Below, piece by piece: positions 2 through 16,945 of a stretch of DNA of 41,248 bases (its first letter is position 1; every line of letters begins with the position of its first letter). Under the pieces are notes generated by a model. It was not told the DNA's origin. It worked only from the letters and a program-made list of their open reading frames with translations, and did no database searches. The translations under genes and the position numbers were made by a program. This DNA is from an uncultured Ruminococcus sp. Lineage in GTDB: Bacteria > Bacillota > Clostridia > Oscillospirales > CAG-272. The stretch covers positions 1 to 41,248 of the forward strand of contig CADBQA010000145.1 in the NCBI GenBank assembly GCA_902796675.1, read 5' to 3'.

Positions 2-2269
2 GCACTGTCTATGCTTTTGGTCGCCGCGATCCTGATGGTCGGTTCGACTTACGCGTGGTTCACGCTGTCAACGGCGCCCGAAGTCAAGGGCATCACGACG
101 AGCATCGGCGCTAACGGCAACCTTGAGATCGCGCTTCTGAATGCTACGAGTTACGCCAGCACGGCTGCTGACCTCGGGATCATTTCCAACGTCGGCGACT
201 CAATGGAAAATACAACGAACTGGACTGTAGATCAGGCCAACCATACTTGGGGTAACCTTGTAGATCTCGGTGTGGCTACATACGGTCTTGCAAACATTAT
301 CCTTCTTCCCGCTGCGCTCAACATCACAAATCCCACTGCCGCAACCGGAACAGCACATACTATTGGCACATCTATTCTGAAAGCTCCCGGATACGGCGGA
401 GACGGCAGAGTTACTGTTGTCAACACCGATACGGTCACCGGTAAAGCTCAGGGCGCTGTGTTCACTCAGGATAACGCTTTCGCGGGCGTACGCGCTATCG
501 GCGTTGCGTCCGAAAGATCGCTTCGTCAGCAGGCATACGTTAATGCAACCGAAGCCCTCGCAGACGCGATTTCCAGCGCTGTTGCTACATCCAGAACTAC
601 CCTGAATGACTACGGCCAGGCGCTTAGTGCAATCATCGTCAGAGCAGCTATGGCTTCAGACCGCAACACTTTGACGTTCTCAGGTGCAGAGCTTTCCACG
701 CTCTCAAACGTTATAAACGGTCTAAATGACGCAAATGCATTTGTGCTTGAAGCAGTCAAGCAGGCTGCTCTAGCCGATCAGCTCGGCGAAGGCGGTGCAA
801 CGCTTGCAGATGACGCCGCTGTCACCGCACTTGTTGATCAGTACAACGCATATACCGAAACTGATATTGCAGGCCTTTCGTTGTCAACAGACGTAGCTGC
901 TGCGTTTGCAAAATATCAGTCGAATAAGACTGCTATTGCAACTGCTCAGGGTCATGTAACAACGGCTTCCACGGGCAGTGAACCTTATCCATACTCCGTT
1001 ATCAGCCCTATTCTCAATGATATTGCAAATGATAATGGTATCGGATTAAGAGCTTCCGGCAGCAGTACTATAGTTTCAATTTATGATACTGAAACGCATC
1101 AGCGCAAAGAAAGAGGCACACTCGAGACCGAACTCGGCGGTATATCTGCTATTGGTTCAGGCATGACCGTAATATTCGGCGAAGGTTCCGGATTGATCTA
1201 TGATCTTGCGAAAGCTGTCGGCAACTTCTCATCGAATTCATTCAATATCTCTGCTTCGGACGTGGGATTTACCGGCCTTTCTTCCAACATCCCCGTTTCC
1301 CTCATGACAAACGCCTCCAGCCCTATTCTTCCCGCGGCGCAGTCTTCGATTAACGGAGCTCCTACAGGCACAGGCGGAACTGCAGCGTACAGTATCAATC
1401 CTTACGGCTACGCTCTTGACTTCGGCGTCAGAACGAACGCAGACGGCGCAAATCTTCTTCTCCAGACGTCAGAAAAGCAGCGTATCTATAACGATCCTAA
1501 TAATCCGTCGACAAATGAGGATACTCTCGGCGAAGGTTCGTATCTTGAGTTCACTGCAACGGCAACGTTTGATGCAACAAAGGTAGCAAGACTTATGGAC
1601 GCTATCCGTATTGTATTTGCGGAACCCACAGCTGACGGATTCAACGTTCTTGCTATCGCAAAAACAGGTACACCGGTTACAACAGGCAACAATGTTAAGG
1701 CTGCTCTTGCGCTTTACGAATATACTCTTGAAGCCAAAGCGGGCGAGGCTCCTGTTCTGACTATCGGCGAAGCGAAGAAAGACACAAACGATAATCCCGA
1801 CTACACGATCGCAGCTCTCACGAAGAATCAGGCGAAGAAGATAACAGTTATTGTTTATCTCGACGGTGATATCGCTGACAATACGTTTGTTGCCAATGCA
1901 CCGACTTCTATGGCAGGCAAGCTGAACCTTCAGTTTACGACCGATAAGGCTCTTGTTCCTATGGAGAACGCGGCTCTTCGCGGAACTCTCAGCGAATCCG
2001 ATCAGGCAAAGGCAAGATTCAAAAGCCTCGTAACGGATCAGTTCAGCCAGGATCAGCTTACTCAAATCGCTACAGATGTAACTAATGGCGCGACTGGTTG
2101 GAAGAGTGCAATTACAACGGCATCAAGATTTATCTTGATAGCTGGAGAGAACGATCTTGATGCAGATCAACTTGTAACTGTGAACGCTGCGCTTGATATA
2201 ATCGAAGATAAAGCGAATGAGATAGAAGCGTGGAAAGAAACGTGGAATGCCGAACATCCCAACCCCTGA
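2..2269 (+). CDS. 5'-truncated large secreted protein with SipW-cognate (TasA/camelysin-class) signal region; putative major fibre/surface subunit (paralog 1)
   Basis: The reading frame is open to the window edge, upstream of the Met at 11. A hydrophobic segment is followed by STYAWFTLS, which resembles the GT-x-A-x-F motif of SipW-dependent signals (TasA has GGGTWAAFND). The protein is rich in A/T/S/G/N. The C-terminal VYLDGD...GKLNLQFTT block is shared with the ORFs at 2464 and 8136. G+C looks lower than in downstream genes. Confidence 0.75.
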   Translation, partial: ALSMLLVAAILMVGSTYAWFTLSTAPEVKGITTSIGANGNLEIALLNATSYASTAADLGIISNVGDSMENTTNWTVDQANHTWGNLVDLGVATYGLANIILLPAALNITNPTAATGTAHTIGTSILKAPGYGGDGRVTVVNTDTVTGKAQGAVFTQDNAFAGVRAIGVASERSLRQQAYVNATEALADAISSAVATSRTTLNDYGQALSAIIVRAAMASDRNTLTFSGAELSTLSNVINGLNDANAFVLEAVKQAALADQLGEGGATLADDAAVTALVDQYNAYTETDIAGLSLSTDVAAAFAKYQSNKTAIATAQGHVTTASTGSEPYPYSVISPILNDIANDNGIGLRASGSSTIVSIYDTETHQRKERGTLETELGGISAIGSGMTVIFGEGSGLIYDLAKAVGNFSSNSFNISASDVGFTGLSSNIPVSLMTNASSPILPAAQSSINGAPTGTGGTAAYSINPYGYALDFGVRTNADGANLLLQTSEKQRIYNDPNNPSTNEDTLGEGSYLEFTATATFDATKVARLMDAIRIVFAEPTADGFNVLAIAKTGTPVTTGNNVKAALALYEYTLEAKAGEAPVLTIGEAKKDTNDNPDYTIAALTKNQAKKITVIVYLDGDIADNTFVANAPTSMAGKLNLQFTTDKALVPMENAALRGTLSESDQAKARFKSLVTDQFSQDQLTQIATDVTNGATGWKSAITTASRFILIAGENDLDADQLVTVNAALDIIEDKANEIEAWKETWNAEHPNP

Positions 2270-2307
2270 TTCACTTTAAGTTTTAGCTTATTTTCTTTCG
2301 ATAAATA

Positions 2308-2390
2308 CCCTCCCGCCCTCGGGCGGGAGGGGTAAATCGAGGCGGTCCGCAGGGCCGACTTTTGCGCGTACCGGGCGTGCGCGCAAAAGT
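2308..2390 (+). terminator. Two strong GC hairpins downstream of gene 1; possible partial terminator or RNA-stabilising element
   Basis: Hairpin 1 is CCCTCCCGCC-CTCG-GGCGGGAGGG (2308-2331). Hairpin 2 is ACTTTTGCGCG...CGCGCAAAAGT (2358-2368 paired with 2380-2390). Neither has an adjacent U-tract; the nearest T-run lies at about 2409-2417. Confidence 0.35.
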
Positions 2391-2435
2391 GGATCCTGCG
2401 ACGGATTCTTATTTTTGAAAACAAGTATACATATA

Positions 2436-2450
2436 CGGTCAAATTGACCG
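2436..2450. promoter_or_regulatory. Perfect 7-1-7 palindrome CGGTCAA-a-TTGACCG just upstream of gene 2; candidate operator or small hairpin
   Basis: Read directly from the sequence. It ends 13 nt before the TTG start at 2464 and abuts the AGAGGA ribosome-binding site. Confidence 0.25.
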
Positions 2451-2463
2451 AGAGGACGGGAAA

Positions 2464-3453
2464 TTGGAAGCAAGCAAAAAAAGACGGCGCAGGACGTTTT
2501 TGTACCTCTGGATCCTGCTCGGACTGCTCGTACTTCTCGTCGCCGCAACTTACACCTGGTTTTCACTTTCGCAAACTCCTCACGTCAACGACATGGCGAT
2601 GTACGTAAACGCGGAGTCGGGCCTTGAGCTCGCTCTCGAGTACGACGCGCCGGATGACGAGTGGGGGCAGAAGATCGATTTTCTCGATATGGTGGACGAC
2701 GACTATCCGCTGAAACCGGCGACGTGGTCGGACGCAAGACAGAGCTTCGCAGCCATCCGTTACGGGCTCGACGGCAGACTCACCGACGAGATAGTCCCGC
2801 TGACGGACGGTATGAACGCAAACAGACGCGACGCCTACGGGTACTACGTAACGGGCGCGTTTTACGCGAGGACGCTGATGCCATGCACCGTGTCGCTCGC
2901 CGAGGCGGTAGAGCTTAACGAAGGTGAAAACGGAGCCGGTACATACGTCATCGGCACGCCTCTTTGGGACGACGAGGAGCTCGTTCACACGGACGGCGGC
3001 AGCGGCGCGGAGTGCGCGGTGAGGATAGGGCTCAGGATCACGCCTGTTGACAAAGACGGGGCGGCGAAGGGCGACACGGAATTCTTCATATACGAGCCGA
3101 ACTGCGACGTTCATATCGAGGACGCCGAGGGATACGTCGACACCCCGAACGTCGACGGGGGCGACACTCTTACGGACCGCGATCATATGATCCTTCAGGA
3201 GGCGTCGACCTGGACCGAGGCGTATCCTGTCAGACACGACGTTACTATAAAAGACCTCGGAAAATTCATTGAAAACAGGACTCTTTTCTCGCTCGAGAGG
3301 GGCGAAATCGTTAAAATAGAGCTTTACGTCTGGCTTGAGGGTCAGGACGTGGACTGCACGAACAGGATCGAGGACGCAAAGATCATGGCGAATCTTCAGT
3401 TCCACACGGACTACAGCGGACAGACGGGGCTCGACATTATACCGAACGATTAA
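2464..3453 (+). CDS. Secreted protein with SipW-cognate signal region (TasA/camelysin-like paralog 2)
   Basis: TTG start 7 nt after AGAGGA. An n-region KKRRRR and a hydrophobic core are followed by ATYTWFSLS. The C-terminal YVWLEGQDVDC...ANLQF block and a FIYEPN block are shared with ORF 8136. Confidence 0.8.
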   Translation: MEASKKRRRRTFLYLWILLGLLVLLVAATYTWFSLSQTPHVNDMAMYVNAESGLELALEYDAPDDEWGQKIDFLDMVDDDYPLKPATWSDARQSFAAIRYGLDGRLTDEIVPLTDGMNANRRDAYGYYVTGAFYARTLMPCTVSLAEAVELNEGENGAGTYVIGTPLWDDEELVHTDGGSGAECAVRIGLRITPVDKDGAAKGDTEFFIYEPNCDVHIEDAEGYVDTPNVDGGDTLTDRDHMILQEASTWTEAYPVRHDVTIKDLGKFIENRTLFSLERGEIVKIELYVWLEGQDVDCTNRIEDAKIMANLQFHTDYSGQTGLDIIPND

Positions 3454-3503
3454 CGGATAGGATCCGTTTTATATGGAAAGCAATAATTGAAGGGAGTAAT
3501 TCC

Positions 3504-4556
3504 ATGAAAAAGAAAAACGCCAGCGTCACTGTCAATGAAGAAGCGACAGCTCCTGAAAAGAAGGAGAAGAAGGGCAGAAAGATAGCGAATATTATCATAA
3601 ACGTTATCCTTGTCATCGCCATCATTATTGCGGCGCTCAGTACTTACATCTCGTTTGTAAGTTCGTCAGGCAACGGTGTGCCGAGCATTTTCGGAATTGA
3701 AATGCTCTCGATACAGACCGATTCAATGGTGCCGACGATAAATCCCGGCGACCTTATCATCGACAAGGAAGTCAAGGACGCGTCGGAGCTCCACACGGGC
3801 GATATCATCACTTATTGGACTGTCATCGACGGCGAGCGCGTGCTCAACACGCACAGAATCGTTGAGATCTACGACGGCGGTAATTATCTTATCTTTGCCA
3901 CGAAGGGTGATAACAACAACACGGAGGACCCGCTGACCGTTCATGAGTCCGAGATCGTCGGCGTATACAGCAGATACAACGCCGAAACGGGTGAGGATGA
4001 AGGCGCGACGAAAATAAAGGGTCTCGGCAAGGTATTCGATTTTCTGCAGACAAGCACGGGATTCCTTCTCGTGGTCGTACTCCCTGTCGCTCTGTTCTTC
4101 CTGTATCACCTCATACAGTTCTTCCGCGTGCTCTTTGAGTATCAGTCCGTTAAGAACAGACTCCGCTTTGAGCAGGAACGCGAGGATGCGGACCGCGCCG
4201 AGCGCGAGGCTGAAAAAGAGGCTGCGGACGACGGTGAAAAGGCGGCTGAGCGCGAAAAACTCGAAGAAGAGCTTCGCGAAAAGCTGAAGAAAGAACTTAT
4301 CGAGAGCGGCGCTATCCCGGCAGAAAAAGCCGAAGAGCAGGCGGCTCCCGAAGAAGCGCCCGCGGAACCCGAAAAAGCGGCACCCACGGAAGAGGAGATC
4401 CGCGCCGAGATAGAGGCGAAGATACGCGCCGAATACGAGGCGAAACTCGCCGCCGCAAAGCAGGACGCCGAGAAGGCGGAAGACGCGGCGGAAAAAACGG
4501 TCGAAGAAGCAACGGACGCCGTATCCGCTGACGCCGAAGAGAAAAAAGAAGATTGA
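3504..4556 (+). CDS. Signal peptidase I, ER/archaeal S26B type (SipW-like), with a long C-terminal Glu/Lys/Ala-rich tail
   Basis: AAGGGAG ribosome-binding site and an N-terminal TM helix. The catalytic Ser lies in TDSMVPT (codon 3723-3725), a His in NTHRIV, and there is a TKGDNN box; together these match the Ser/His SipW-type signature. A second TM (GFLLVVVLPVALFFLY) is followed by a charged tail of about 140 aa. Confidence 0.85.
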   Translation: MKKKNASVTVNEEATAPEKKEKKGRKIANIIINVILVIAIIIAALSTYISFVSSSGNGVPSIFGIEMLSIQTDSMVPTINPGDLIIDKEVKDASELHTGDIITYWTVIDGERVLNTHRIVEIYDGGNYLIFATKGDNNNTEDPLTVHESEIVGVYSRYNAETGEDEGATKIKGLGKVFDFLQTSTGFLLVVVLPVALFFLYHLIQFFRVLFEYQSVKNRLRFEQEREDADRAEREAEKEAADDGEKAAEREKLEEELREKLKKELIESGAIPAEKAEEQAAPEEAPAEPEKAAPTEEEIRAEIEAKIRAEYEAKLAAAKQDAEKAEDAAEKTVEEATDAVSADAEEKKED

Positions 4557-4602
4557 TCCTCTTAAATTAATCACGCCGCGTGCGGCGCTGACGAGGTAGA
4601 TA

Positions 4603-6180
4603 ATGGACCACTTTTTACATTACCTGTTCATGGATCTGGGACGTCTTGTCAAGTCCTTCATCCAGATATTCATATCCTTCTTTGATTTCGTACTGAACCT
4701 GTTCAACTTCAAGGAGCGCTATGAGATCATAAAGAATACGACGAGCGATTTTACGGTCTTCGAGTGGATAATGCTCGTAATAACCGAGATCATATTAGTC
4801 GCTCTCGCGGTATTTCTCCTTTACCTTCTCTTCAAGCTTTTGAAGAAGATCTTCCGTTTCCGCGTTTCCGTAAAGAAATACGACGAGCTCGCAAAGCAGG
4901 TCAAGATCCTGCAGCGCGACCTTCTCCGTGCAAACTATGAGAAGGACCGCCTGCTCCAGATGAAGGCGGCGGAGCTCGGCATTTCCGAGGATGCGCTTAA
5001 GGGAGAAGAGCCCGAAGAAGAGGAAAAGGGAGAGGGCGAGGACTTCGTTCCGCTTCAGAACCGCAACACGATGGAGTCACCTCTTGTCGACCCCGAGGAG
5101 AGCCGTTTCTTCAGACTCACTTCCGTAGACAACTATTACAAGACGGAGTATAAGGCGCCGACGTACGACGATTCGCTCACTCTGCCGGACATTTGCGACA
5201 GGTTCAGAAGATATACCGCTTATTATCTGAAGCTTTATTACGATATCGACATGATGCGCTACTTCATCGCCTCGATGGGTACCGCGCGCATTATCATCCT
5301 TCAGGGTATATCGGGTACCGGTAAAACGTCGCTTCCTTATGCGTTCGGCAAGTTCGTCGGAGTCGACACGACAGTCGTTTCCGTACAGCCGTCCTGGCGT
5401 GAGAGGACCGAGCTTTACGGTTACTACAACGAGTTTACGAGAAAGTATATGGAGACGGACTTCCTTCGCGCCATTTACGAAGCGAACTTTTACCGTGATC
5501 CTCACATCATCATTCTCGACGAGATGAACATCGCGCGCGTTGAGTACTACTTCGCCGAGATGCTCTCCATCCTCGAGCTTCCCCGCAAAGAGGAATGGAA
5601 GGTCGACATCGTAACGGCGATGTGGGAGAACGACCCCGTTCTCATAGAAAACGGCACCGTTCCGATAAGCGACAACATCTGGTTCGTCGGCACCATCAAC
5701 AACGACGACTCGACGTTCGCCGTCGCGGATAAGGTTTACGACCGTGCGATACCGATCGACCTTGACAGCCGCGCCGATCCGTTCGAGTGCGAGCCCGCGG
5801 AGCAGATCACGATCTCAACAGAGCATCTCAACGCTCTGTTCGATCAGGCGAAGCGCGATTATCCTCTCTCGGAAGAGATGATCGACAAGCTCGAAAATAT
5901 GAATATGTATCTTATAAAGAACTTCCGTCTTGCATTCGGTAACCGTATTATGAAGCAGGTAAAGGATTTCGTTCCCTGCTTCGTCGCATGCGGCGGCACC
6001 GAGCTTGAAGCGGTAGACTTTATAATCGCAAAGAAAGTTCTCCGTAAATTCGAGTCTCTCAGCCTCGGATTTATGAAGGACGAGCTCACGAAGTTCAGCG
6101 CGTATCTCGACCGCACGTTCGGCAAGAACAAGATGGTCACGTGTAAGGACTACGTAGAGCTTCTCAAGAAGAACAACTGA
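4603..6180 (+). CDS. Membrane-anchored McrB-family AAA+ (AAA_5) GTPase-like protein lacking a DNA-binding N-domain
   Basis: Walker A GISGTGKT (5305-5328) and Walker B IIILDEMN (Asp-Glu at 5518-5523). DEMNIARVEYYFAEMLSILE and GTINNDDSTFAVADKVYDRA resemble the McrB-family DE(I/M)NRA and (M)NTADRS blocks as I recall them, and the NxxD is retained (5698-5709). The N-terminus has a strongly hydrophobic helix (WIMLVITEIILVALAVFLLYLLF) and a charged coiled-coil-like linker. Confidence 0.8.
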   Translation: MDHFLHYLFMDLGRLVKSFIQIFISFFDFVLNLFNFKERYEIIKNTTSDFTVFEWIMLVITEIILVALAVFLLYLLFKLLKKIFRFRVSVKKYDELAKQVKILQRDLLRANYEKDRLLQMKAAELGISEDALKGEEPEEEEKGEGEDFVPLQNRNTMESPLVDPEESRFFRLTSVDNYYKTEYKAPTYDDSLTLPDICDRFRRYTAYYLKLYYDIDMMRYFIASMGTARIIILQGISGTGKTSLPYAFGKFVGVDTTVVSVQPSWRERTELYGYYNEFTRKYMETDFLRAIYEANFYRDPHIIILDEMNIARVEYYFAEMLSILELPRKEEWKVDIVTAMWENDPVLIENGTVPISDNIWFVGTINNDDSTFAVADKVYDRAIPIDLDSRADPFECEPAEQITISTEHLNALFDQAKRDYPLSEEMIDKLENMNMYLIKNFRLAFGNRIMKQVKDFVPCFVACGGTELEAVDFIIAKKVLRKFESLSLGFMKDELTKFSAYLDRTFGKNKMVTCKDYVELLKKNN

Positions 6181-6269
6181 CATAAACGGGCGACGTCGCG
6201 CCGCGGGACTACGGTCCGGCGGCGTGCGGCGTGACGTCACGGTATGGATTCGTACGGAGGTGTAACGGT

Positions 6270-8111
6270 ATGGCGGAAATAGAAAGGATCCGTTCGGGCG
6301 ACGAGGACAAGTCGCTGATCGACCCTATATATAAAAAGTTCGTCAAGGGAACTCTTCGCGCCATAGGAAGCACCGAGTTTTATGAGTTCTTTATGGACGC
6401 GCTCTCCAAGGCGGACAATGAGTTCCAGTTCTCGAACAGAAAGCTCGAGAAGGTCGTGGATCTGGTGTGGGTCGATACGATAAACGGCGCTCTCGGCGCT
6501 TTTCAGAACATCGTCGGCAACCCGAGAAACGTCATCAAAGAGGAAGAACTCATCGTCAGCATCGCAAACGCGAAGAAGGCGGGACCGGAGACCGTACGTC
6601 ACCTTGCGCAGCACGCGGCGCTCGTCGACGAATATCATGAAGAGACCGGCGATATCCGTCCCGGCAGGCTTATGCAGAGATACCGCGAGGACACGATAGG
6701 CATTTATGAAAACCGTCTCGTCTTCACGGCGATGGAATACGCATACAGATTCGTAAAGATCCGTCACGACGCTCTTTTTGAAGCGATGAGCGACGAGTTC
6801 GGCGCGAAGCTGAAGGTGCGCTCGGATATGGACAGCGCGACGGAACACGTTCATATGGATATGTTCCTGCACATCAAAGAGGTCGACTCCGCGCTTGAAA
6901 CCGACGACAAAAACTCACAGGTGTTCGCTACGATATCGAGGATGTACCGCATTCTCGGCTCGTTTATGAACACCGGATTCGCGCAGCAGTTATCCCAGCT
7001 TCCGCGCATAAAGGGCAAGATCAACATCACGAACGTTCTTAAAAAGAACAAAGATTACCACAAGATACTGGAGCTTTTCAACTTCTTAAAGAATTACGAC
7101 CAGATAGGTTATACTATCAAGGTAACGGAGCAGAATCCGGAGATCAACGAACAGTTCCAGCGCGATATTTACCACAACATACTTTTCAATTACCTTATCC
7201 TCAAGGGTTATCTCGAGAGCGAGGAGGACCGCAAGGTCCCGACGGCTTCAAAGACTCAGCGCAAGATGCTGAAGCCGAAGTTCATCCACGAGATCATCGA
7301 GGAGATAACAGAGGATTACGACCTTCCCGACGTCGAGGTCCGCAAGGTCCTCATCGAGGAGCTCACGAAGGCTCAGCTTATGCAGGAGGAGCGCGAGGAG
7401 CGCCGCCGCCTCGTAGAGGAGCAGGAGCAGAGAAGAAGAGAAGAAAAAGAGCGCGAGCGCGCAGAAAAAGCCGCGGAGCGCGAGAGAATAAAGCAGGAGA
7501 AGGCGGCGGAACGCGAACGTATCCGCCAGGAAAAGGCTGCCGAGCAGGAACGCCTTATGATCGAGCGCACCGAGCGCGAGATAGAGGACAGACGGCGCAG
7601 CATGCTTCTGCGTGAAGAGATCAAACGCTTTACGGACAACCTCGAAGAACAGCTCTTCCGCCGCAGCGATATGGAAAAGGAAAAGGCGGAGGGACTTCTC
7701 GATTACGCGGACGCCGCGGAGATACTTGAGGACGTCGAGAAATTCCAGAAAGAAGAAGCGGACAGAGCGCGTCAGAGAAGACGCGAAGAGCGCGAGAGAC
7801 TCCGCCGCGAGGCGCAGATAGCCGAGCAGAAGGCGAAGGAAGAAGCGGAGCGCGCGCGTATTGCAAAAATAGAAGAAGAAAACAGGTTACGTCACGAACA
7901 GGAGGAGCGGGAGCGCGTGGAATACGAGGCTCTCGTTGCGCACGACAAAGAAGCGCTCGCACCTCTGGAGGCGGAAATAACCGTGTTCTCCGCAGCCCTT
8001 GCCGGGCAGCTTGAGCGCCGCCGTGTACAGGCTGAAAAGGCGAGAGCCGCCGAGGCCGCGCGCGAAGAACGCCGCCGCCTCCGTCAGGCTCAAAAGGTGG
8101 ACGTAAGATAA
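6270..8111 (+). CDS. McrC N-terminal-like (DUF2357-like) protein without recognisable nuclease, fused to a ~240-aa Glu/Arg/Lys-rich helix
   Basis: GGAGG sits 9 nt upstream of the ATG at 6270; the track ORF begins at an upstream GTG at 6231. TIGIYENRLVFTAMEYAY (YENRL at 6705-6719) resembles the T-x-ENR(F/L)(V/L) block of McrC/DUF2357 N-domains. No D...(D/E)xK (DAKY-type) nuclease block was found by eye. From about 7380 onward the sequence is almost pure E/R/K/A/Q, with tandem EKAAERERI(K/R)Q units. Confidence 0.65.
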   Translation: MAEIERIRSGDEDKSLIDPIYKKFVKGTLRAIGSTEFYEFFMDALSKADNEFQFSNRKLEKVVDLVWVDTINGALGAFQNIVGNPRNVIKEEELIVSIANAKKAGPETVRHLAQHAALVDEYHEETGDIRPGRLMQRYREDTIGIYENRLVFTAMEYAYRFVKIRHDALFEAMSDEFGAKLKVRSDMDSATEHVHMDMFLHIKEVDSALETDDKNSQVFATISRMYRILGSFMNTGFAQQLSQLPRIKGKINITNVLKKNKDYHKILELFNFLKNYDQIGYTIKVTEQNPEINEQFQRDIYHNILFNYLILKGYLESEEDRKVPTASKTQRKMLKPKFIHEIIEEITEDYDLPDVEVRKVLIEELTKAQLMQEEREERRRLVEEQEQRRREEKERERAEKAAERERIKQEKAAERERIRQEKAAEQERLMIERTEREIEDRRRSMLLREEIKRFTDNLEEQLFRRSDMEKEKAEGLLDYADAAEILEDVEKFQKEEADRARQRRREERERLRREAQIAEQKAKEEAERARIAKIEEENRLRHEQEERERVEYEALVAHDKEALAPLEAEITVFSAALAGQLERRRVQAEKARAAEAAREERRRLRQAQKVDVR

Positions 8112-8135
8112 TTTTCAAACGGGAGGTGAGCGCCG

Positions 8136-9446
8136 ATGCGGTCAATGAAGAAAATGTCAGCGAAACTTTTCGCCGCCGTCATGACGCTCATCATCGCCAT
8201 TGTGATCGCCGTTTCCGTGACTTACGCGTGGATGACGCTTTCCACAAGTCCGTCGGTAAGCGGAGCGACGATAAAGATCGGGGGAGGTACTAACATCCTC
8301 CTCGCGCCCGACGTGACAAAGACCATGGACGGCGTTACCGTCCATTATCCCGGCGCGTTCACGGATACCCTCACGTTCGATTCGGAAGCGTACGCGTATC
8401 TTTCCGACCTCGCCGGACTTACTCCCGTATCGACTGCCGACGGCGTCAACTGGTTTTTTCCGAAGTATGACGCTGCGACGGGCGAAATAAAGGATTTCGC
8501 TCTGTTTGACGTCGACGACACGCTCTCAAAGGCGAACGTCACGGGAAACCGTTCCGGCGGTTACGTTTACATCGACTTCTGGGCGGTCGCGCCCGGGTCC
8601 GATTACAAGCTTCGCGTTTCGACCGATACCAAGGCGACGAGAGGCTCGGCGGACAGCGAGTTTTACGACGGCTCGTCACTTCTTGAGATACCTTCCGTGG
8701 TTTCAAACGGCGAGGGCGGATGGCGTCTCGGCGAGACGAAGGGAAATATTGACACGGTCGCCCGCGTGGGATTTCTCGTAAATTCGGGAAGCGCCGAGGC
8801 AAAATCGGTAACCGGATACGTATACAGCGCGGACTACGACGCGAGATTCAAAAAGCTCGTCGGCAGATATCAGGAGCCGGGCGACGCCGCGGCTGTAAAC
8901 GCCGACAATAAGTTTACGATATACGAGCCCAACGGCACGAGACATACAGACGGCGAGCAGGGATGCTACCGCGTTACGAATCCCATCGGATACGACGCTC
9001 TCGGCAATGCTTCTCCGTCAGACGTTTCAGACCGTCTCACCGTTCAGAGCGCAAGCGGATGGAAGCGCGGCGCGGGAGAGGGCAGAATGATAGACGAGGT
9101 GTTCTCCGGCGTCGCCGGTGAAAAGACGGAAGACGAAGCGCGCGAAACGCTTAAGGCTTTCATTGAATCGGAATCGATCAACTATATTCAGACCGGCGTC
9201 TTCTTCCGAAGCACAGAGACTCTCATAAACAACGCGGGAGACGACGGATATCTCCCGGCGGCGGAGGTCGAAAATCTCCTGACGTCGGGTGCAACGGACG
9301 ATGTGTATATAACCGAGCTTGAAAAGAACGCGCCGCAAAGGATAAGGATGTTTATCTGGCTCGAGGGTCAGGATGCCGACTGTGTGGCGTCCGGCGCGGG
9401 AGCGACTTATTTCGCGCTTAATCTTGAGCTTGCCGGGGCAAATTGA
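8136..9446 (+). CDS. Secreted protein with SipW-cognate signal region (TasA/camelysin-like paralog 3)
   Basis: GGGAGGTG ribosome-binding site 7 nt upstream. A hydrophobic core is followed by VTYAWMTLS. FTIYEPN and the C-terminal FIWLEGQDADC...LNLEL are shared with ORF 2464. Confidence 0.8.
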   Translation: MRSMKKMSAKLFAAVMTLIIAIVIAVSVTYAWMTLSTSPSVSGATIKIGGGTNILLAPDVTKTMDGVTVHYPGAFTDTLTFDSEAYAYLSDLAGLTPVSTADGVNWFFPKYDAATGEIKDFALFDVDDTLSKANVTGNRSGGYVYIDFWAVAPGSDYKLRVSTDTKATRGSADSEFYDGSSLLEIPSVVSNGEGGWRLGETKGNIDTVARVGFLVNSGSAEAKSVTGYVYSADYDARFKKLVGRYQEPGDAAAVNADNKFTIYEPNGTRHTDGEQGCYRVTNPIGYDALGNASPSDVSDRLTVQSASGWKRGAGEGRMIDEVFSGVAGEKTEDEARETLKAFIESESINYIQTGVFFRSTETLINNAGDDGYLPAAEVENLLTSGATDDVYITELEKNAPQRIRMFIWLEGQDADCVASGAGATYFALNLELAGAN

Positions 9447-10252
9447 TGAAGAAAAAGACGCACGACAGTGAAGCCGGAAAGGGCTCAAAGTCCTTCAAGG
9501 CATACGTTATATCGACCGTCGTACTCGTTCTTGCCGTTCTGCTGTGCGCCATAGTCACGATACAGACGCTCGTTCAGGGGTACGTCAGTATTTTCGGTTA
9601 CAGCGCGTTTCGCGTCGTGACCGGGAGTATGGAGCCGACGATGTCCGTCGGCGCGGTCCTTCTCTCGAAGGACGTCGACATACACGACGTTGCGGTGGGG
9701 GATATTATCTGCTTCCGTTCGAGGGAGTCGAGCCACTACGGGTCGATAGTCACTCACCGCGTGGTTTCGATAACCGCGTCGGAGGACGGCTCGCCGATGC
9801 TCGAGAGCCGCGGCGACGCGAACTATTCGTCCGATCCGTATTTAGTCGAGGAAAACAACCTCATCGGCAAGGTCATCTGGTATACCGGTAAGGAAGGATT
9901 TTTTAACAAGGTACTTTCATTTATGTCTGGTAAAATCGGTTTTCTCGCCGTCATAGTCATTCCCGTTCTCGTAATAGCGGGTCTGATCCTCCACGGCGTC
10001 GGGCGGAACATCCGCGGGGAGCTTGACGACACGCTCGATATGCTCTCAAGGGAAAATAAGAACTCAAATAAGAATGAAAAGAAGAAGGATCCGTCGCCGG
10101 ACGATCCTTTGCCCGGATATAAGTATCTTACAAGAAGAGACTATAACGAGATCTATGAGGCGCTGCGGCGCGAGATTTGGAAGGAACTAAACTGCAATGT
10201 GGAAGCGAATGAGAGAAAAACTGAATATTCGGGGGAAAACTCTCAGGACTGA
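9446..10252 (+). CDS. Signal peptidase I, ER/archaeal S26B type (SipW-like), second copy
   Basis: The ATG at 9446 overlaps the upstream TGA (TGATG); the track start is a TTG at 9443. Motifs present are VTGSMEPT (catalytic Ser), VTHRVV (His) and a RGDAN box, plus N- and C-terminal TM helices and a short Lys/Asn-rich tail. Confidence 0.85.
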   Translation: MKKKTHDSEAGKGSKSFKAYVISTVVLVLAVLLCAIVTIQTLVQGYVSIFGYSAFRVVTGSMEPTMSVGAVLLSKDVDIHDVAVGDIICFRSRESSHYGSIVTHRVVSITASEDGSPMLESRGDANYSSDPYLVEENNLIGKVIWYTGKEGFFNKVLSFMSGKIGFLAVIVIPVLVIAGLILHGVGRNIRGELDDTLDMLSRENKNSNKNEKKKDPSPDDPLPGYKYLTRRDYNEIYEALRREIWKELNCNVEANERKTEYSGENSQD

Positions 10253-12221
10253 CAGGCAGTCGGAAAACGGGAGCGAGGGCGGCGTCTACGACGAAAAGAT
10301 GCGCCGCGTACGCCGCGTTGTAAGGAGCCAGGCTCTCCTTGCGGGCGGCACTCTGCTCGTCGTTGTGATCCTCATATTCGCGATGACCGCGGCATGGTAT
10401 ACGAACGTTTCGAGAACGTCGACGCTGACGTTCAAAGCGGAGTCGTGGGGCTTTGATCCTGACAACATAACTGTCGGGACCGCGGCTATCGGCGCCGCTC
10501 CCGGCAGATCCGGCATCGTACCGATCGAGATCGACAATTCAAAGTCCGCCGACCCTGTGAAAATTTACGTCAATGTGTCGAAAAGCGAAATGTCGGAGGA
10601 ACTCAAGAGAAGGATCTTTTTCTATGCTGATACGTCGGAGGAGATCTCCGGCGAGATGGTGTCGCGCGTTTACGTCGGCGCTCTCCGGGACGGGGCGTAC
10701 GCGTACGATATCCTCCCAGGGCAGAAGCTCGTGATGTCGGATGATTTTTGCAGCGACGTGCCGCTCAAGTGGAGATGGGTCTACGATATGGAAGGCTATT
10801 ATTTCCGCGGAACGGTGAACAACGTCAGCGCGACGGCGGAGGAGTATATAAGACCCGTCGAATACGATCTTGACCGCGCGACCTTTGAAAAGACGAACGG
10901 CGTTCCGACAGGCGCGCCCGTGACGATATACGGCAAGAGCGTAGCTGAATTTCTCGACGACGTCTCCTCCCGCGACGGATACGAGGGAAGGGTCGACGCG
11001 TCCGACGCCCGCGTGATCGGGTCGTCGAGTTATTATCCCGTGAAAGTCGACGAGAACGGCTCGGGGATCTGGCTCTACCTTTGCAGTTACGCGGAGATAG
11101 ATCAGGGTATCAGTTATGACACGAATCTCGGAGAGAATACCGAGTTTGAAGCGAAAATAACCGTAACGGCGGTCAGCGTACCGTCTGAGGTCAAAAACGT
11201 ATCGTCCGCCGCGGAGCTCGCCTCCGCTTTGAACGATCCCGAGGTCAACTCGGTAAAGCTTTCGTCCGATATCGAGATCCCGTCAGCCGTCACGCTGGCG
11301 GCGGGAGCCGACACGACTCTCGACCTCGGCGGGAATAGGATCACCTACACCGGCGGCGAGACGGAGTATTCGATGATAGTCGCCTCTGAAGGCTCAAAGC
11401 TGAACGTCATCGGCGGCGAGATCGCCGGCAACGGAAATTCGAGCGGCGTCGGCGGAACGGTCGACAGCATAGCCGTCGAATCGGTCGGCGCGGAGGTCTC
11501 TCTCTCCGGCGTCACAGTCTCGGGATTCGACACCGCGGTCTGCGTCTCCGATAACGACGGGACCGGCGCGGACTCGATCCTTCGCCTTACGGATTGCGAG
11601 CTCGATATGCAGAACCTCGGCGTTTTCATAAAGGGCAACGGATCGGCGTCCGAGGCGCATACGACGGTTATTATAGACAACTGCAAAATTAACGGCGAAA
11701 CGTACGCCGGTATTTCCGGACAGGGCGCGACTGACCTCTGGGGCGTCGACCTTGTCGTCAGAAACAGCGAAATATCCGGATATTATACGTCCGTATATCT
11801 TCCCGCGCGCGACACAGGCGCGTATATTAAGGACAGCACGTTATCCGGCATCACCGGAATCGTCGTCAAGGGCGGCACGGTCATAATCGACGGCTGCAGC
11901 GTCACGGGAAACGGAGCGCACGTCGCAGCGGCGGCGTCGGGCGGCGGCTGGACCGACACCGGCGACGGCGTCTACGTCGAGGCGGTATACAACTGGAACG
12001 CTGACGTTACGGTAAAGAACAGTACCGTAAACAGCACGTACGCTTACGCTGTCGAGCTCTTTGGAAAGGCGGGCTCCGGCAGCGGAAGGATAGCCCTCGA
12101 GGGCGGTTCATACGCCGGCGGCGCGGGAGGTGCGAACTGGAACAGTATCGGCACATTCACCGTCAAGGGATGCACGTTTAGCGGGAGCGTCCCGGGCGAC
12201 GTGACGAGACTTGACGGGTGA
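10197..12221 (+). CDS. Secreted protein with divergent SipW-type signal region, TasA-like N-domain and C-terminal parallel beta-helix repeats
   Basis: The n-region MRRVRRVVR plus a hydrophobic core is followed by MTAAWYTNVS. APGRSGIVPIEIDNSKSADPVKIYVNVS resembles the PGD...N.G strand of TasA/camelysin. The C-terminal half carries repeated G-x-V/I-x-I/V-x-N/G-S/C turns (for example GGTVIIDGCSVTGNG and VKNSTVNSTYAYAVEL), typical of a right-handed beta-helix. The start is uncertain: ATG 10197 overlaps the previous gene by 56 nt, and the alternative is ATG 10299. Confidence 0.7.
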   Translation: MWKRMREKLNIRGKTLRTDRQSENGSEGGVYDEKMRRVRRVVRSQALLAGGTLLVVVILIFAMTAAWYTNVSRTSTLTFKAESWGFDPDNITVGTAAIGAAPGRSGIVPIEIDNSKSADPVKIYVNVSKSEMSEELKRRIFFYADTSEEISGEMVSRVYVGALRDGAYAYDILPGQKLVMSDDFCSDVPLKWRWVYDMEGYYFRGTVNNVSATAEEYIRPVEYDLDRATFEKTNGVPTGAPVTIYGKSVAEFLDDVSSRDGYEGRVDASDARVIGSSSYYPVKVDENGSGIWLYLCSYAEIDQGISYDTNLGENTEFEAKITVTAVSVPSEVKNVSSAAELASALNDPEVNSVKLSSDIEIPSAVTLAAGADTTLDLGGNRITYTGGETEYSMIVASEGSKLNVIGGEIAGNGNSSGVGGTVDSIAVESVGAEVSLSGVTVSGFDTAVCVSDNDGTGADSILRLTDCELDMQNLGVFIKGNGSASEAHTTVIIDNCKINGETYAGISGQGATDLWGVDLVVRNSEISGYYTSVYLPARDTGAYIKDSTLSGITGIVVKGGTVIIDGCSVTGNGAHVAAAASGGGWTDTGDGVYVEAVYNWNADVTVKNSTVNSTYAYAVELFGKAGSGSGRIALEGGSYAGGAGGANWNSIGTFTVKGCTFSGSVPGDVTRLDG

Positions 12222-12232
12222 CGGGAGGCGGT

Positions 12233-12823
12233 ATGATGAGCAATCTGAAACGTAAGACCGCGCTTCGCCTCACAATATCCGCCGTTATAATCGTTCTGAC
12301 AGCCCTGTGTCTTATCGGCGTGACAGCGGCGCGCATCAGACAGTCGGCAGAGAGCGAAAAAATCAAATTGAAATATTCATTCGCGTCCGACAGCGTCCAC
12401 ATACAGAAAAACGGAAGCTATTCGCCGCCTGACGGATGGAGCGAAGTTTCGGGCGACAAAACGGAGTACGAGCTCTCGTTCGTTCTCTCAAACGCCGCCG
12501 CGGACGACGACGTCGCAAAGTACAGCCAGACGGCGTACGTCGAGGTCTTCGTTACGGAAGGCGCCGGCGACGGCGTGAGCGTGAAACTCGCGGCGGACGG
12601 CAGAACGGTCGAAGGTTCTTACCGCGAAGCGGAAGAAGGTTCCGCGATATATGAGAAGTACGGCGCGGGGCGTGTTTACGGCTTTGTAAATCCCTCGGGC
12701 GACATGTACACATGGGCGATGCCCGCCGGCAGCGCGGTCTTCGTTCCGATGACGCTGACGGTCTCGGGCGAGGCGGCAAACCCCGCGGCGGTGACAGTCA
12801 TCGCGTGCGGCATCCCCTCATAA
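12233..12823 (+). CDS. Small membrane-anchored or secreted protein, unknown function
   Basis: GGGAGG ribosome-binding site at 12223-12228, with ATG at 12233 or 12236 (the track starts at GTG 12218). N-terminal KRK plus a TM helix (ISAVIIVLTALCLIGVTAA). No recognisable domain. Confidence 0.6.
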   Translation: MMSNLKRKTALRLTISAVIIVLTALCLIGVTAARIRQSAESEKIKLKYSFASDSVHIQKNGSYSPPDGWSEVSGDKTEYELSFVLSNAAADDDVAKYSQTAYVEVFVTEGAGDGVSVKLAADGRTVEGSYREAEEGSAIYEKYGAGRVYGFVNPSGDMYTWAMPAGSAVFVPMTLTVSGEAANPAAVTVIACGIPS

Positions 12824-12854
12824 GTCAGCATCTTTTGCCAAAGGAGGCTCACGG

Positions 12855-13916
12855 TTGAAAAAAAGAATAACGCCGTTTGTCCTCGCGGCGGCGATAATAC
12901 TTATTTGTACAACAGTCTTTGCCGTCGGCTTCGCCGGCGCGAGAACAGCCAATACGGATACCTGGACGGGTAAGATCCTTCCCAAGGAGACGCCCGACGC
13001 ATCGAACGTGTCGAGCGATCTTCTGACAAAGAACGGTCAGTCGGTCCTTCTCAGAAACAGGACGGAGGAGTTCAGCGTGCCGATAAAGCTCACGTCGTCC
13101 GACGGCAAAATCAAGGGCACGTTATCAGCAAACTCGGGCAGCGCGCCGGTCAGTCTGTCTCTTTCCGAGACGTCGCTTTCCCTCGCGGACACCGCGTCAA
13201 AAACGGTGACGCTCACCGTGAGCCCGAAGGACGGTTTTGCGGACGCTGAGGGCGTCACGTTCGGCGTCGAGTGGCGCGGTGAGCACGAAACGCTTCGCGC
13301 GTCTTTCTTTATCGACAACAGAACGGAGAGAGCGGAGTACGATTCGGCGACGATAACGGCGCCGGAGGTTTATCTCAAGGGCGAGCCTTTCTATATCACC
13401 GCAAACGTCAGGGCTACTCTTCGGTTTTCGACGGGAGAGGGCGTACAGGGAGCATTTCCCTCCGGTACGAAGTACAAAGGTGAAGACGGCGGCGAGTGTT
13501 ATCTTTACGACGCCGACTATATAACCGCGGAGCTCGGCGAGACGGCGATCGACTTATCGCGCGCCGAGTACAGCGGAACGGTGCGGATAACCTGCGGGTC
13601 CGTTACGAAATCTCTTACGGCGATAAATCCCATAAAGTCATCGTACACTGACAGGATACTGACGATAGTCGGTGACGCGTCCGTCGACCTCGGTCTTCCT
13701 TATACGTGGGAGGGCATCGCGCCGGAGTTTACGATCGAGCGCCTTTCACACGGCGCGTGGGAGAGCGCGGCAGACGTCACGCTCCGCGACATTTCCGGCA
13801 GAGCGCGTCTCACGACGGACGGCGCCGCGGCGGGCACTTACAGGCTGATTATTTCGTGGTCGGCGTCGGGTCACGTCCTGTACGGCGAAGAGATACCTTT
13901 CTTCGTGATACATTGA
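12855..13916 (+). CDS. Membrane-anchored or secreted protein, unknown function (last gene of the operon)
   Basis: TTG start 7 nt after AAGGAGG. N-terminal KKR plus a TM helix (FVLAAAIILICTTVFAVGFAG). Rich in Ser/Thr and probably beta-rich. Followed by an intrinsic terminator. Confidence 0.65.
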   Translation: MKKRITPFVLAAAIILICTTVFAVGFAGARTANTDTWTGKILPKETPDASNVSSDLLTKNGQSVLLRNRTEEFSVPIKLTSSDGKIKGTLSANSGSAPVSLSLSETSLSLADTASKTVTLTVSPKDGFADAEGVTFGVEWRGEHETLRASFFIDNRTERAEYDSATITAPEVYLKGEPFYITANVRATLRFSTGEGVQGAFPSGTKYKGEDGGECYLYDADYITAELGETAIDLSRAEYSGTVRITCGSVTKSLTAINPIKSSYTDRILTIVGDASVDLGLPYTWEGIAPEFTIERLSHGAWESAADVTLRDISGRARLTTDGAAAGTYRLIISWSASGHVLYGEEIPFFVIH

Positions 13917-13950
13917 AAATCGGAGAGCATATCTCCGATTTTTATTTTTC
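13917..13950 (+). terminator. Rho-independent terminator closing the 13.9-kb operon
   Basis: Stem AAATCGGAGA (13917-13926) pairs with TCTCCGATTT (13932-13941). The loop is 5 nt and the stem is followed by TTATTTTTC. Confidence 0.7.
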
Positions 13951-15142: not shown

Positions 15143-16945
15143 ATGAAAAGATCGTTACGTTTTGCGGCGTCCCTTGCGGCGTCGCTGATACTTGCGCTTC
15201 TCGTCTTTACCTCCGCGGCTGAGGACGGCGTCACGACCGACGGCGAGGCGTACGAAGAAACGGTCGAAACGCCTGAGGCCGTTCGTGACACGGAGGCGCC
15301 TGAGACGGAGGACGCGACCGAAGCAGATGAGACGCCGGAGGCGGACGGGGAAACTACCGCAGAAGACGCGCCTGAGATCATCCTTTACAAGGCGCCCGCT
15401 TCAAACTCGAAATACGTTCTCTCGCCCGAATTCAAAAAGGCGGAGTTCATCGTCGGTTCCTCGTGGACGGCGCTCCCTCATTCCGGCGACGTCGATCATA
15501 TCGAGGGGTTGAGGCTCACGACGGCGTCATCGTCATACCGGCTCGAATATAGGGTCAAGCCGAGAGGATACGACTGGACCTCTTTGCAGAACAGCGGCAA
15601 GTCGGGCAGCGGCGCCGGACTCGCCGGAGTCCCCGTCACGAATATCGAGATAAAGGTTTACAGCAACGTAAAGAGCGGATACGACAAGACGGACTACGTC
15701 GTTATGTACCGCGCGAAGGCGGGCGGCGTCTGGCTCGGCTGGGTCAGCAACGGGACTGAAGATGTCATGACCGCCGTAAAGAGCGAGTTTTCGCTGGGAG
15801 GCGAGCTCGACGTGTCGGCGACGGACGCCGGTTGGGAGTATTACGGCAATATCACGGCGCTTGAGATCATGGTCTTTCAAAAGAGAAATCATACGGCGGG
15901 CTCATCCGCCGTCCTGATCGACGCGCCTTACATAAATCAGTACGCCTCGTCTTTGCCGAACGGGTGCGAATCTGTCAGCGCGGCGATGGCGCTTCAGCAC
16001 GCGGGGCTGAATATCACGGCGGAGAGCTTCGTCAAAAACTATCTGCCTAAGGGCAGCGCGCCCGTATACGGCGTCGGCGCCGACCCGGCGGAGGTGTACG
16101 TCGGCGACCCGCATCTCACGGACGGAGGCGGCTGGGGATGCTACGCGCCCGTAATAGTCAAGGCGCTGAAAAGCGCGACCGCCGGAAAAGGGTATACCGT
16201 GACAAACCTTACCGGGAGCGAGCTATCCGTGCTCTGCCACGACTTTATCGACCGCGGGGTACCGGTCATCGTCTGGGCGACGACCGGCATGACGGGCAAC
16301 GTCAGTTACTCGTGGTGGCAGACGCCCGGCGGCAAGAGCATAAAGTATAACAACAGACTTCACACGCTCCTTCTCGTCGGGTACGATGCTAACTATTACT
16401 ATTTCAACGACCCGATGACGAGGATAGGGAGCGAAAAGTATTTCGCGTACTCAAAGAGCGAGACGGCGACGGCGTACGCGACCCTCGGCAAGGGCGCCGT
16501 CGCGGTTGAAAAAACGTACTGCAAGTCAATAAAGGTGACGTCTCCTCCGGCGCGCACCGTATACGTCGCGGGGGATGAGATAGATCTTACCGGGATCGCG
16601 GCGACGGCGTATTTCAGCGACGGCACGAGCGCGAGGGTGACAAGCCTCACGCCCTCGGAAAGCACGGCGAAACAGGGCGCGACGTCCGTCACGGTGCTTT
16701 ATACGAAGGACGGCGTGACGGTGTCATCGGAGGTCCCTGTAAAGGTTTACGATAAAATCGTCGGCGACGCGAACGGCGATGGCGACGTGACGGCGAAGGA
16801 CGTCCTTCTTTGCAGACGGATCATCGCCGGACTTGAAGATATTTCATCCGCGCTTCTCTCGAACGCGGACTGCAACGGTGACGGCGACGTGACGGCGAAG
16901 GACGTGCTTATAATCAGGCGTATCGTCGTCGGTCTCGACGTATAA
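15143..16945 (+). CDS. Secreted C39-like (papain-fold) cysteine peptidase domain protein with Ig-like domain and C-terminal type I dockerin
   Basis: The ATG directly abuts the upstream TAA. Signal peptide followed by an acidic linker. Candidate catalytic Cys in PNGCESVSAAMAL and His in HTLLLVGYD. An Ig-like segment follows (VTSPPARTVYVAGDEIDLTG). Two dockerin Ca-binding repeats are present: GDANGDGDVTAKDVLLCRRIIAG and DCNGDGDVTAKDVLIIRRIVVG. Confidence 0.7.
   Translation: MKRSLRFAASLAASLILALLVFTSAAEDGVTTDGEAYEETVETPEAVRDTEAPETEDATEADETPEADGETTAEDAPEIILYKAPASNSKYVLSPEFKKAEFIVGSSWTALPHSGDVDHIEGLRLTTASSSYRLEYRVKPRGYDWTSLQNSGKSGSGAGLAGVPVTNIEIKVYSNVKSGYDKTDYVVMYRAKAGGVWLGWVSNGTEDVMTAVKSEFSLGGELDVSATDAGWEYYGNITALEIMVFQKRNHTAGSSAVLIDAPYINQYASSLPNGCESVSAAMALQHAGLNITAESFVKNYLPKGSAPVYGVGADPAEVYVGDPHLTDGGGWGCYAPVIVKALKSATAGKGYTVTNLTGSELSVLCHDFIDRGVPVIVWATTGMTGNVSYSWWQTPGGKSIKYNNRLHTLLLVGYDANYYYFNDPMTRIGSEKYFAYSKSETATAYATLGKGAVAVEKTYCKSIKVTSPPARTVYVAGDEIDLTGIAATAYFSDGTSARVTSLTPSESTAKQGATSVTVLYTKDGVTVSSEVPVKVYDKIVGDANGDGDVTAKDVLLCRRIIAGLEDISSALLSNADCNGDGDVTAKDVLIIRRIVVGLDV

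Follow-up and report, generated by a model that had tools for sequence, protein, structure and literature searches.

Two adjacent genes at positions 4603 to 8111 of a 41,248-nucleotide stretch of DNA from an uncultured Ruminococcus sp. (contig CADBQA010000145.1, assembly GCA_902796675.1; the whole stretch is called the window from here on) encode what, judging from their sequences, is a derivative of McrBC in which a membrane anchor and coiled coil stand in place of the DNA reader, and long charged helices in place of the nuclease. The pair is a core, strongly constrained part of a secretion operon centered on SipW, which includes two SipW signal peptidases and five to six secreted proteins whose signal sequences are SipW-like. 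Our preferred interpretation, to which we assign a probability of about 0.6, is that the pair serves the biogenesis (processing or assembly) of the neighboring secreted proteins in a GTP-driven mechanical role and does not act in restriction. A preliminary description of this DNA, made from the letters alone, had left the choice between a mechanical module for envelope or fiber assembly and a noncanonical defense module. The fiber assembly module was favored because the synteny with SipW and the secreted proteins is strict, the McrB-like gene has the highest conservation of the operon, and no effector was found; the defense alternative was disfavored. The sequence features of the locus place it in the CoCoPALM class, named by Bell, Makarova, Wolf and Koonin (eLife 2024; PMC11090510), who deferred its analysis to a later paper.

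The first gene of the pair and its features are the following.

4603..6180, + strand: McrB-like AAA+ NTPase of the NxD branch (CoCoPALM GTPase, 525 amino acids), from profile and PDB matches
4645-4707, + strand: weaker amphipathic hydrophobic helix, residues 15-35, from a Kyte-Doolittle scan
4747..4854, + strand: transmembrane segment, residues 49-84 (core ~55-80), from Kyte-Doolittle values
4864..5097, + strand: heptad-like helix, residues 88-128, then acidic linker, residues 131-165, from sequence and composition
5104-5133, + strand: SRFxxLxxVD motif, residues 168-177, from the alignment of relatives
5305..5328, + strand: Walker A, GISGTGKT, residues 235-242, from the alignment
5512..5538, + strand: Walker B region, ILDEMNIAR, residues 304-312, from the alignment
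5698..5709, + strand: signature N366-N-D368-D369 (NxD followed by D/E), from the alignment

The sequence comparisons identify this protein as a McrB-family AAA+ NTPase. The motifs GISGTGKT, ILDEMNIA and GTINNDDST (residues 363-371), from which an AAA_5/McrB core had been proposed, were all found where they had been placed, and profile and structure databases led to the same family. The best NCBIfam match was the McrB model (3.7e-4), and the match to Pfam AAA_5 (E 2.9e-4) was slightly under the gathering score. A search of the PDB with the single sequence returned solely McrB chains at E<=0.01 (6hz4, 6ut6 and 7vsr; 1.3e-4), and this match rose to 1.8e-5 when a profile of 35 sequences of McrB-like relatives was used. 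Comparison of the same profile with E. coli McrB by hhalign produced a probability of 96.9% with an E value of 1.7e-10 over residues 211-384. An identity as a MoxR- or dynein-type AAA_5 protein was considered and rejected because the PDB matches were McrB chains only; no MoxR or dynein match was found at E<=0.01.

In the alignment of the 35 relatives, residues G235, G238, G240, K241 and T242 of Walker A are invariant, as are D306, N309 and R312 of the Walker B region, in which E307 is nearly invariant. In comparisons with E. coli McrB, this region is matched to Walker B. Other invariant positions among relatives at 34-80% identity are S370-T371, R381, G446 and R448, and N447 is nearly so. Since the catalytic motifs are invariant down to 34% identity, the enzyme is very likely active. 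The reading of the signature motif in the preliminary description, that NxxD was retained, turned out to be a misreading. The local N-N-D-D is compatible with both NxxD and NxD. However, N366 and D368 are invariant and position 369 is D, E, Q or G in the 35 aligned and ~130 scanned relatives, and the motif is therefore an NxD(+D/E) variant, which assigns the protein to the NxD branch. According to Bell et al. (PMC11090510), the NxD variant, mostly with E or D as the next residue, defines a major branch of McrB GTPases. The SRFxxLxxVD motif, which separates the acidic linker from the NTPase core, is nearly invariant: R168, F169 and L172 do not vary in the alignment, and D176 hardly does. No counterpart of this motif is known from E. 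coli McrB.

The McrB-like protein has no DNA-binding N-terminal domain; that place is taken by a transmembrane segment, which is followed by a coiled coil and then by an acidic linker, as expected from the hydrophobic helix and charged coiled-coil-like linker noticed at first sight. Residues 49-84 are hydrophobic, with a Kyte-Doolittle peak of 2.8, and a K/R-rich stop-transfer stretch follows. By the positive-inside rule, this K/R-rich stretch would place the remaining protein, including the NTPase, in the cytoplasm. The heptad-like helix at residues 88-128 was judged from sequence and composition and is short. The N-terminal architecture is kept in the aligned relatives, and more distant ones have two clear transmembrane segments. 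The N-terminal types found among the NTPase relatives were one transmembrane segment, as in the window protein; two, with the Walker A sequence GMSGTGKT; at least three, in proteins of 550-700 amino acids with the Walker A sequence GLSGTGKS; and none, in proteins of 700-870 amino acids. The groups with multiple transmembrane segments are not mentioned in the part of the text of PMC11090510 that was available.

This N-terminal region bears on another explanation, which we consider rather unlikely: the pair could be a regulatory, quality-control or positioning device and not an assembly engine. It could act as an on/off switch of SipW1, clear uncleaved precursors or spent signal peptides out of the membrane, or use an FtsB-like anchor to position the machinery at the septum or forespore. 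A transmembrane segment followed by a short coiled coil resembles FtsB, DivIC and FtsL, and the N-terminal fragments of three of nine relatives gave sub-threshold matches to the Pfam DivIC/FtsL_2 models (E 0.02-0.5). Furthermore, Bell et al. (PMC11090510) describe a large clade in which NxD GTPases are joined to a domain that they term FtsB-homologous. Nonetheless, the homology to FtsB was not significant here, as the window protein itself had no match to the DivIC, FtsB or FtsL models of Pfam, and its coiled coil would be cytoplasmic while that of FtsB is outside the membrane. The invariant catalytic residues speak for real NTP turnover; turnover is as compatible with a switch as with an engine, so that it does little to separate the two.

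The second gene of the pair and its features are the following.

6270..8111, + strand: McrC-like partner, 613 amino acids, from the DUF2357 profile and synteny
6375..6779, + strand: match to DUF2357 (McrC N-terminal), residues 36-170, from Pfam
6414-6458, + strand: predicted beta-hairpin, residues 49-63, from AlphaFold2
6705-6722, + strand: YENRLV block, residues 146-151, from the alignment
7368..8105, + strand: ER/K-rich helical tail, residues 367-612, from composition and AlphaFold2
7464-7562, + strand: three 11-residue repeats, residues 399-431, from composition

The start codon of this gene is the ATG at 6270, which has a GGAGGTG ribosome-binding site 8 nucleotides upstream, and the resulting 613-amino-acid form is the one found in databases. 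The protein matched DUF2357 (PF09823) with 28.3 bits against a cutoff of 23.3 (E 1.3e-6, residues 36-170). This family is treated as the McrC N-terminal domain by Bell et al. (PMC11090510). The profile was detected in 35 of 60 McrC-like homologs, with a best E value of 7.9e-10, and no other Pfam family was found in any of the 60. The YENRLV block, which had been likened to that of McrC/DUF2357 N-domains, held up in the comparisons: its positions are invariant or nearly invariant in the 60 sequences, and 87 of the 89 McrC-like open reading frames of related loci contain a [YF]EN[RK] block. The same 60-sequence alignment showed that N50, F54, S55, N56, R57 and K61 are invariant within the hairpin at residues 49-63. 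The AlphaFold2 prediction begins with an N-domain of mixed alpha/beta structure that ends near residue 315, continues with a disordered region at 314-366 and closes with two very long helices at 367-476 and 483-612. No transmembrane segment was found in this protein.

Residues 366-613 are 51% E+R+K and 18% hydrophobic, and they include the 11-residue units EKAAERERIKQ, EKAAERERIRQ and EKAAEQERLMI, so that the E/R/K-rich C-terminal ~240 amino acids with tandem EKAAERERI(K/R)Q units reported earlier were recovered. Because of the charged composition, the low hydrophobicity and the three repeats, the tail looks more like an ER/K-type helix than like a classical coiled coil. The McrC-like tails of close relatives are alike, with a median of 247 amino acids and 54% E+R+K. 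In relatives that are more distant, the place of the ER/K tail is taken by longer coiled coils rich in leucine; in one distant locus, L056, the McrC-like protein of 848 amino acids combines such a leucine-rich coiled coil with an additional C-terminal domain. Tails of this type indicate that the long helices are the conserved feature and that the ER/K composition is specific to the subgroup.

A nuclease was not found in the McrC-like protein by Pfam, applied to the 60 homologs, by a PDB profile search or by Foldseek, in line with the earlier failure to find a PD-(D/E)xK block. Given the plainly helical character of the C-terminal half, the absence is well supported there; it is less firm for residues 175-315. 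A cryptic PD-(D/E)xK fold in these residues was rejected, with limited sensitivity, as the region is modeled as one two-strand hairpin and then helices, does not have three consecutive core strands in the model and gave no supporting match.

These results are relevant to the proposal that the pair is a defense or abortive-infection module, for example a membrane-acting or effector-less derivative of McrBC or CoCoNuT that senses phage at the fiber and shuts down the cell or the fiber. McrBC is ancestrally a restriction system, and the fiber is a likely phage receptor. In addition, the nearest non-membrane relatives of the NTPase (700-870 amino acids, no predicted transmembrane segment) have a long N-terminal extension, a build that characterizes the coiled-coil CoCoNuT GTPases, for which a defense role is predicted by Bell et al. 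(PMC11090510). The window pair shares with CoCoNuTs the NxD branch, coiled-coil fusions and McrC homologs that often have no active nuclease. However, according to that article the CoCoNuT McrC homologs without a nuclease are always accompanied by another nuclease, HEPN or other, located nearby, and the GTPases have no membrane anchor. Here the GTPase has a transmembrane segment, and the Pfam scans, as far as they covered the pair and the operon genes, revealed no nuclease, HEPN or other effector. Taking these points together with the synteny and conservation below, we consider a defense function improbable.

The pair belongs to a single densely packed gene array on the + strand, at coordinates 11-13944 of the window according to the list of open reading frames. 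The intergenic gaps in the array are 24-89 nucleotides, or the genes overlap by 4 nucleotides, and there is one strong terminator only, 3' of the last gene. Besides the pair, the array is composed of the following elements.

11..2269, + strand: A752, secreted protein, from its translation; candidate major subunit, 5' end probably cut by the contig end
2464..3453, + strand: A329, secreted beta-sandwich protein, from an AlphaFold2 model; candidate fiber subunit
3504..4556, + strand: SipW1, archaeal/endoplasmic reticulum-type signal peptidase I, from the TIGR02228 and SipW models
8136..9446, + strand: A436, secreted protein, from its signal-like N-terminus and synteny
9443..10252, + strand: SipW2, second archaeal/endoplasmic reticulum-type signal peptidase I, from TIGR02228; its start overlaps the A436 stop by 4 nucleotides
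10197..12221, + strand: A674, secreted beta-helix/pectate-lyase-like adhesin, from Pfam and synteny
12218-12823, + strand: A201, small gene with an N-terminal hydrophobic segment, from its translation
12855-13916, + strand: A353, small gene with an N-terminal hydrophobic segment, from its translation
13914..13944, + strand: intrinsic-terminator-like hairpin of 13 pairs followed by a T-run, at the operon end

The surroundings of the pair were compared in 106 related loci (26 from genomes and 80 from a profile-based metagenome scan) with 42-75% identity. The gene immediately upstream of the McrB-like one encodes a SipW in 84 of the 88 testable loci (24/24 in genomes and 60/64 in the metagenome set), and the gene immediately downstream encodes a McrC-like protein in 92 of 93 (23/23 and 69/70, respectively). 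The clear exceptions to the first arrangement are loci L039, L041 and L042, where SipW is found just downstream of the McrC-like gene. In locus L034 (2795-5002) the McrB-like gene is followed directly by an A752-like gene and no McrC-like gene is detectable, which may represent a loss or an assembly artifact; it is the only such related locus. The synteny of the pair with SipW persists to 42% identity, and the order A752-A329-SipW1-McrB-McrC-A436-SipW2-A674 is kept whole in the 26 genome loci. An A329 homolog lies directly upstream of SipW1 in the related loci, paralogs of A752 are found at the same position in most of them (28-45% identity), the position of A436 is kept (25-50% identity), and the positions of A674 and SipW2 are syntenic. 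A201 and A353 are weakly conserved (23-38% identity).

The McrB-like gene has the highest conservation in the operon. Its median identity among the 26 genomes is 72%, compared with 62% for the McrC-like gene, 60% for SipW1, 54% for A329 and 24-41% for A752, A436, SipW2, A674, A201 and A353. Judged from these identities, the pattern is the opposite of that of fast-evolving defense genes, and together with the SipW synteny it argues against a defense function. A location of such pairs mainly in defense islands, together with a cryptic nuclease, had been named as an outcome that would speak against the preliminary description; neither was found, and the window genes scanned against Pfam, up to ~28.9 kb, include no mobile-element or defense-island genes. 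Homologs of the McrB-like protein form more than 8000 clusters at 90% identity, full length at ~70% identity, from Clostridia, Lachnospiraceae and Oscillospiraceae metagenome-assembled genomes, and 755 representatives at 50% clustering have E values below 1e-30. The loss of the DNA-binding domain and the nuclease could also suggest a decaying remnant of a restriction system without current function. The more than 8000 full-length clusters, the invariant motifs and the conserved partner and neighbors leave this explanation with a practically negligible probability.

Both signal peptidases were identified with NCBIfam models. SipW1 matched TIGR02228 at 1e-23 and the SipW model at 2.5e-27, and SipW2 matched TIGR02228 at 2.3e-25. 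Past its last transmembrane segment SipW1 has a tail of 128 amino acids, rich in E, K and A, with 47% E+R+K and a net charge of -25. Charged SipW tails are general in the related loci (45% charged), with a median of 61 amino acids, or 112 in the close group. SipW2 also has an extended charged tail of ~79 amino acids after its last transmembrane segment. The SipW1 tail would share its compartment with the NTPase and with the helices of the McrC-like protein. That charged tail and those long helices suggest that proteins dock to one another in the cytoplasm, a point in favor of a regulatory or positioning device.

The secreted neighbors have hydrophobic N-terminal stretches that end in YAWFT (A752), YTWFS (A329), YAWMT (A436) and AAWYT (A674), and the signal-like N-termini of A329 and A436 are TYTWFSLS and TYAWMTLS. 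The xxAWF(T/S) motif resembles TasA-type signals. A329 and A436 also have in common the C-terminal motif WLEGQDxDC (WLEGQDVDC and WLEGQDADC, respectively). In the neighboring open reading frames, a crude regular expression that misses homologs detected by tblastn found the signal motif in 56 of 61 loci and the C-terminal motif in 47 of 61. The proteins with both motifs had no match among the Pfam and NCBIfam families and appear to be an undescribed family of secreted proteins. A C-terminal motif W-(L/I/Y)-E-G-x-D-x-x-C and an xxAWF(T/S) N-terminus were also seen in proteins encoded at 3568-6989 and 12186-13190 of L056, where the pair is flanked by smaller secreted proteins that share the same signal and C-terminal motifs. 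The AlphaFold2 model of A329 is a confident beta-sandwich (predicted local distance difference test, pLDDT, of 87), all-beta following an N-terminal helix. A674 matched the Pfam families Pectate_lyase_5 (2.8e-6) and Beta_helix (1.4e-5), and A752 had no Pfam or NCBIfam match. The combination of a SipW-like signal and a pectate-lyase-like right-handed beta-helix domain makes A674 a candidate tip or adhesive component.

Other elements of the window were observed outside these genes. Between A752 and the remaining operon, at 2308-2408, there is a perfect GC-rich hairpin, CCCTCCCGCCC...GGGCGGGAGGG, with a terminator-like site, which could be an attenuator or an RNA-stability element that raises the expression of the first gene. 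Further downstream, two dockerin-bearing proteins are encoded at 15143-16945 and 23312-25468, one Peptidase_C39-like with a Big_3 domain and the other CotH kinase-like; their presence suggests that the host is a cellulosome-producing Clostridial bacterium.

The way in which the pair could act on the secreted proteins is less certain than its general role in their biogenesis. The GTPase would form a ring under the membrane and, by analogy with McrBC, the hairpin of the McrC-like protein would plug the ring, stimulating GTP hydrolysis. Nucleotide-driven movements would then be transmitted through the coiled coils and transmembrane helices to SipW1, with its charged cytoplasmic tail, and to the membrane-anchored precursor subunits, and these movements would power or gate the cleavage of the precursors and their assembly into a surface fiber. 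The functional parallel would be the assembly ATPase of type IV pili together with the platform protein, or mechanotransmission of the FtsEX type, and not restriction. PilB/PilC and FtsEX rely on a hexameric or dimeric NTPase in the cytoplasm, whose action reaches substrates outside the membrane by way of membrane helices; the likeness is one of function, by our inference, as the protein families are unrelated to those of the pair. In its most specific version, the ring, derived from McrBC and closed by a McrC that has long single-helix arms and no nuclease as its plug, would be the cytoplasmic engine of an unrecognized NTP-powered pilus or fiber machine of Gram-positive gut Clostridia, with force passing through the GTPase membrane helices to the tailed SipW and the signal-anchored subunits. 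We regard this version as possible but doubtful.

Several observations weigh against the biogenesis interpretation. The AlphaFold2 model of the McrC-like protein is of moderate confidence only, with a mean pLDDT of 70 and a predicted template modeling score of 0.38. A Foldseek search of the PDB with this model gave no match below E 0.6, be it to McrC or to a nuclease, and hhalign found no match between the McrC-like profile and the single sequence of E. coli McrC. Since neither method recovered McrC, the McrC assignment rests on the DUF2357 profile and the gene position. Sequence and profile searches of the PDB produced no real matches for either the McrC-like protein or A329. The secreted proteins are candidate fiber or pilin subunits, and their resemblance to a TasA-like pilin is limited to the weak best PDB fold match of the A329 model, to 7ueg, a bundling pilin of archaea (E 0.02, probability 0.08). 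TasA or camelysin models of Pfam and NCBIfam were not found in A752, A329, A436 or A674, nor was TIGR04088, the model of the SipW-type signal peptide, detected in them when their N-termini alone were searched at E<=10. The McrB-like protein matched the PADLOC defense candidate PDC-M26A at 2e-43, which also speaks for a defense function. However, the match covers the NTPase core only (profile positions 314-454 of 724) and the McrC-like protein had no PADLOC match at E<=0.1; therefore, the locus is not a member of PDC-M26. Lastly, the SipW/TasA and BsaA systems function without such an ATPase (PMC11580942), so that an energy requirement is not obvious. This same fact, that SipW/TasA-type systems elsewhere have no motor, lends some support to a regulatory or positioning device.

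Comparison with known systems clarifies where the window locus stands. It resembles E. coli McrBC (6hz4, 6ut6, 7vsr) in the AAA+ core, in the downstream partner with a McrC-type N-domain and in the gene order. However, E. coli McrBC has a DNA-binding N-domain and a PD-(D/E)xK nuclease, neither of which was detected here, and it is an NxxD protein system of a restriction locus, while the window pair is of the NxD type, membrane-anchored and part of a secretion/fiber operon. The SipW-TasA operon of Bacillus and the SipW-BsaA operon of Clostridium perfringens also have a dedicated SipW that adjoins secreted proteins with aromatic-rich, xxAWF(T/S)-like signal ends. These operons have no NTPase, whereas the window operon has an NTPase and two SipW paralogs with long cytoplasmic tails, and, unlike in SipW-TasA systems, its secreted proteins match no TasA/camelysin model.

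The closest likeness is with the CoCoPALM class, whose architecture and link to signal-peptidase genes were described independently by Bell et al. 2024 (PMC11090510). As in that class, the locus has an NxD-type McrB GTPase with a transmembrane and coiled-coil N-terminus, a McrC homolog with long helices, and linkage to genes of the signal-peptidase family. The described features agree with those observed here except for the claimed FtsB homology, which was not significant with Pfam models. The class was thus named in 2024 and is functionally unexplored, and the idea advanced in the preliminary description is less new than it implied. The available part of the supplements of PMC11090510 has nothing further on CoCoPALM. 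In the literature searched, no follow-up paper on CoCoPALM and no further papers on PDC-M26 were found, and the sole co-mention of McrB and SipW was an E. coli strain genotype; papers on SipW or TasA in gut taxa that came up were not relevant. The position of SipW, the SipW1 tail, the ER/K-type tail of the McrC-like protein and the conservation of the NTPase go beyond the description of the class, which consists of one paragraph and a supplementary figure.

The operon is directly testable, since its catalytic residues are clear and it offers candidates both for the activator, in the hairpin, and for the docking partner, in the SipW1 tail. If the motor interpretation is true, the engine of a restriction enzyme would have been repurposed to build a surface structure in Clostridia that are very abundant in the gut and rumen. 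It would represent a class of pilus biogenesis that is independent of the sortase, type IV and chaperone-usher pathways, a new energy-coupled route of fiber assembly in Gram-positive bacteria and a clean case of the transition from defense to housekeeping.

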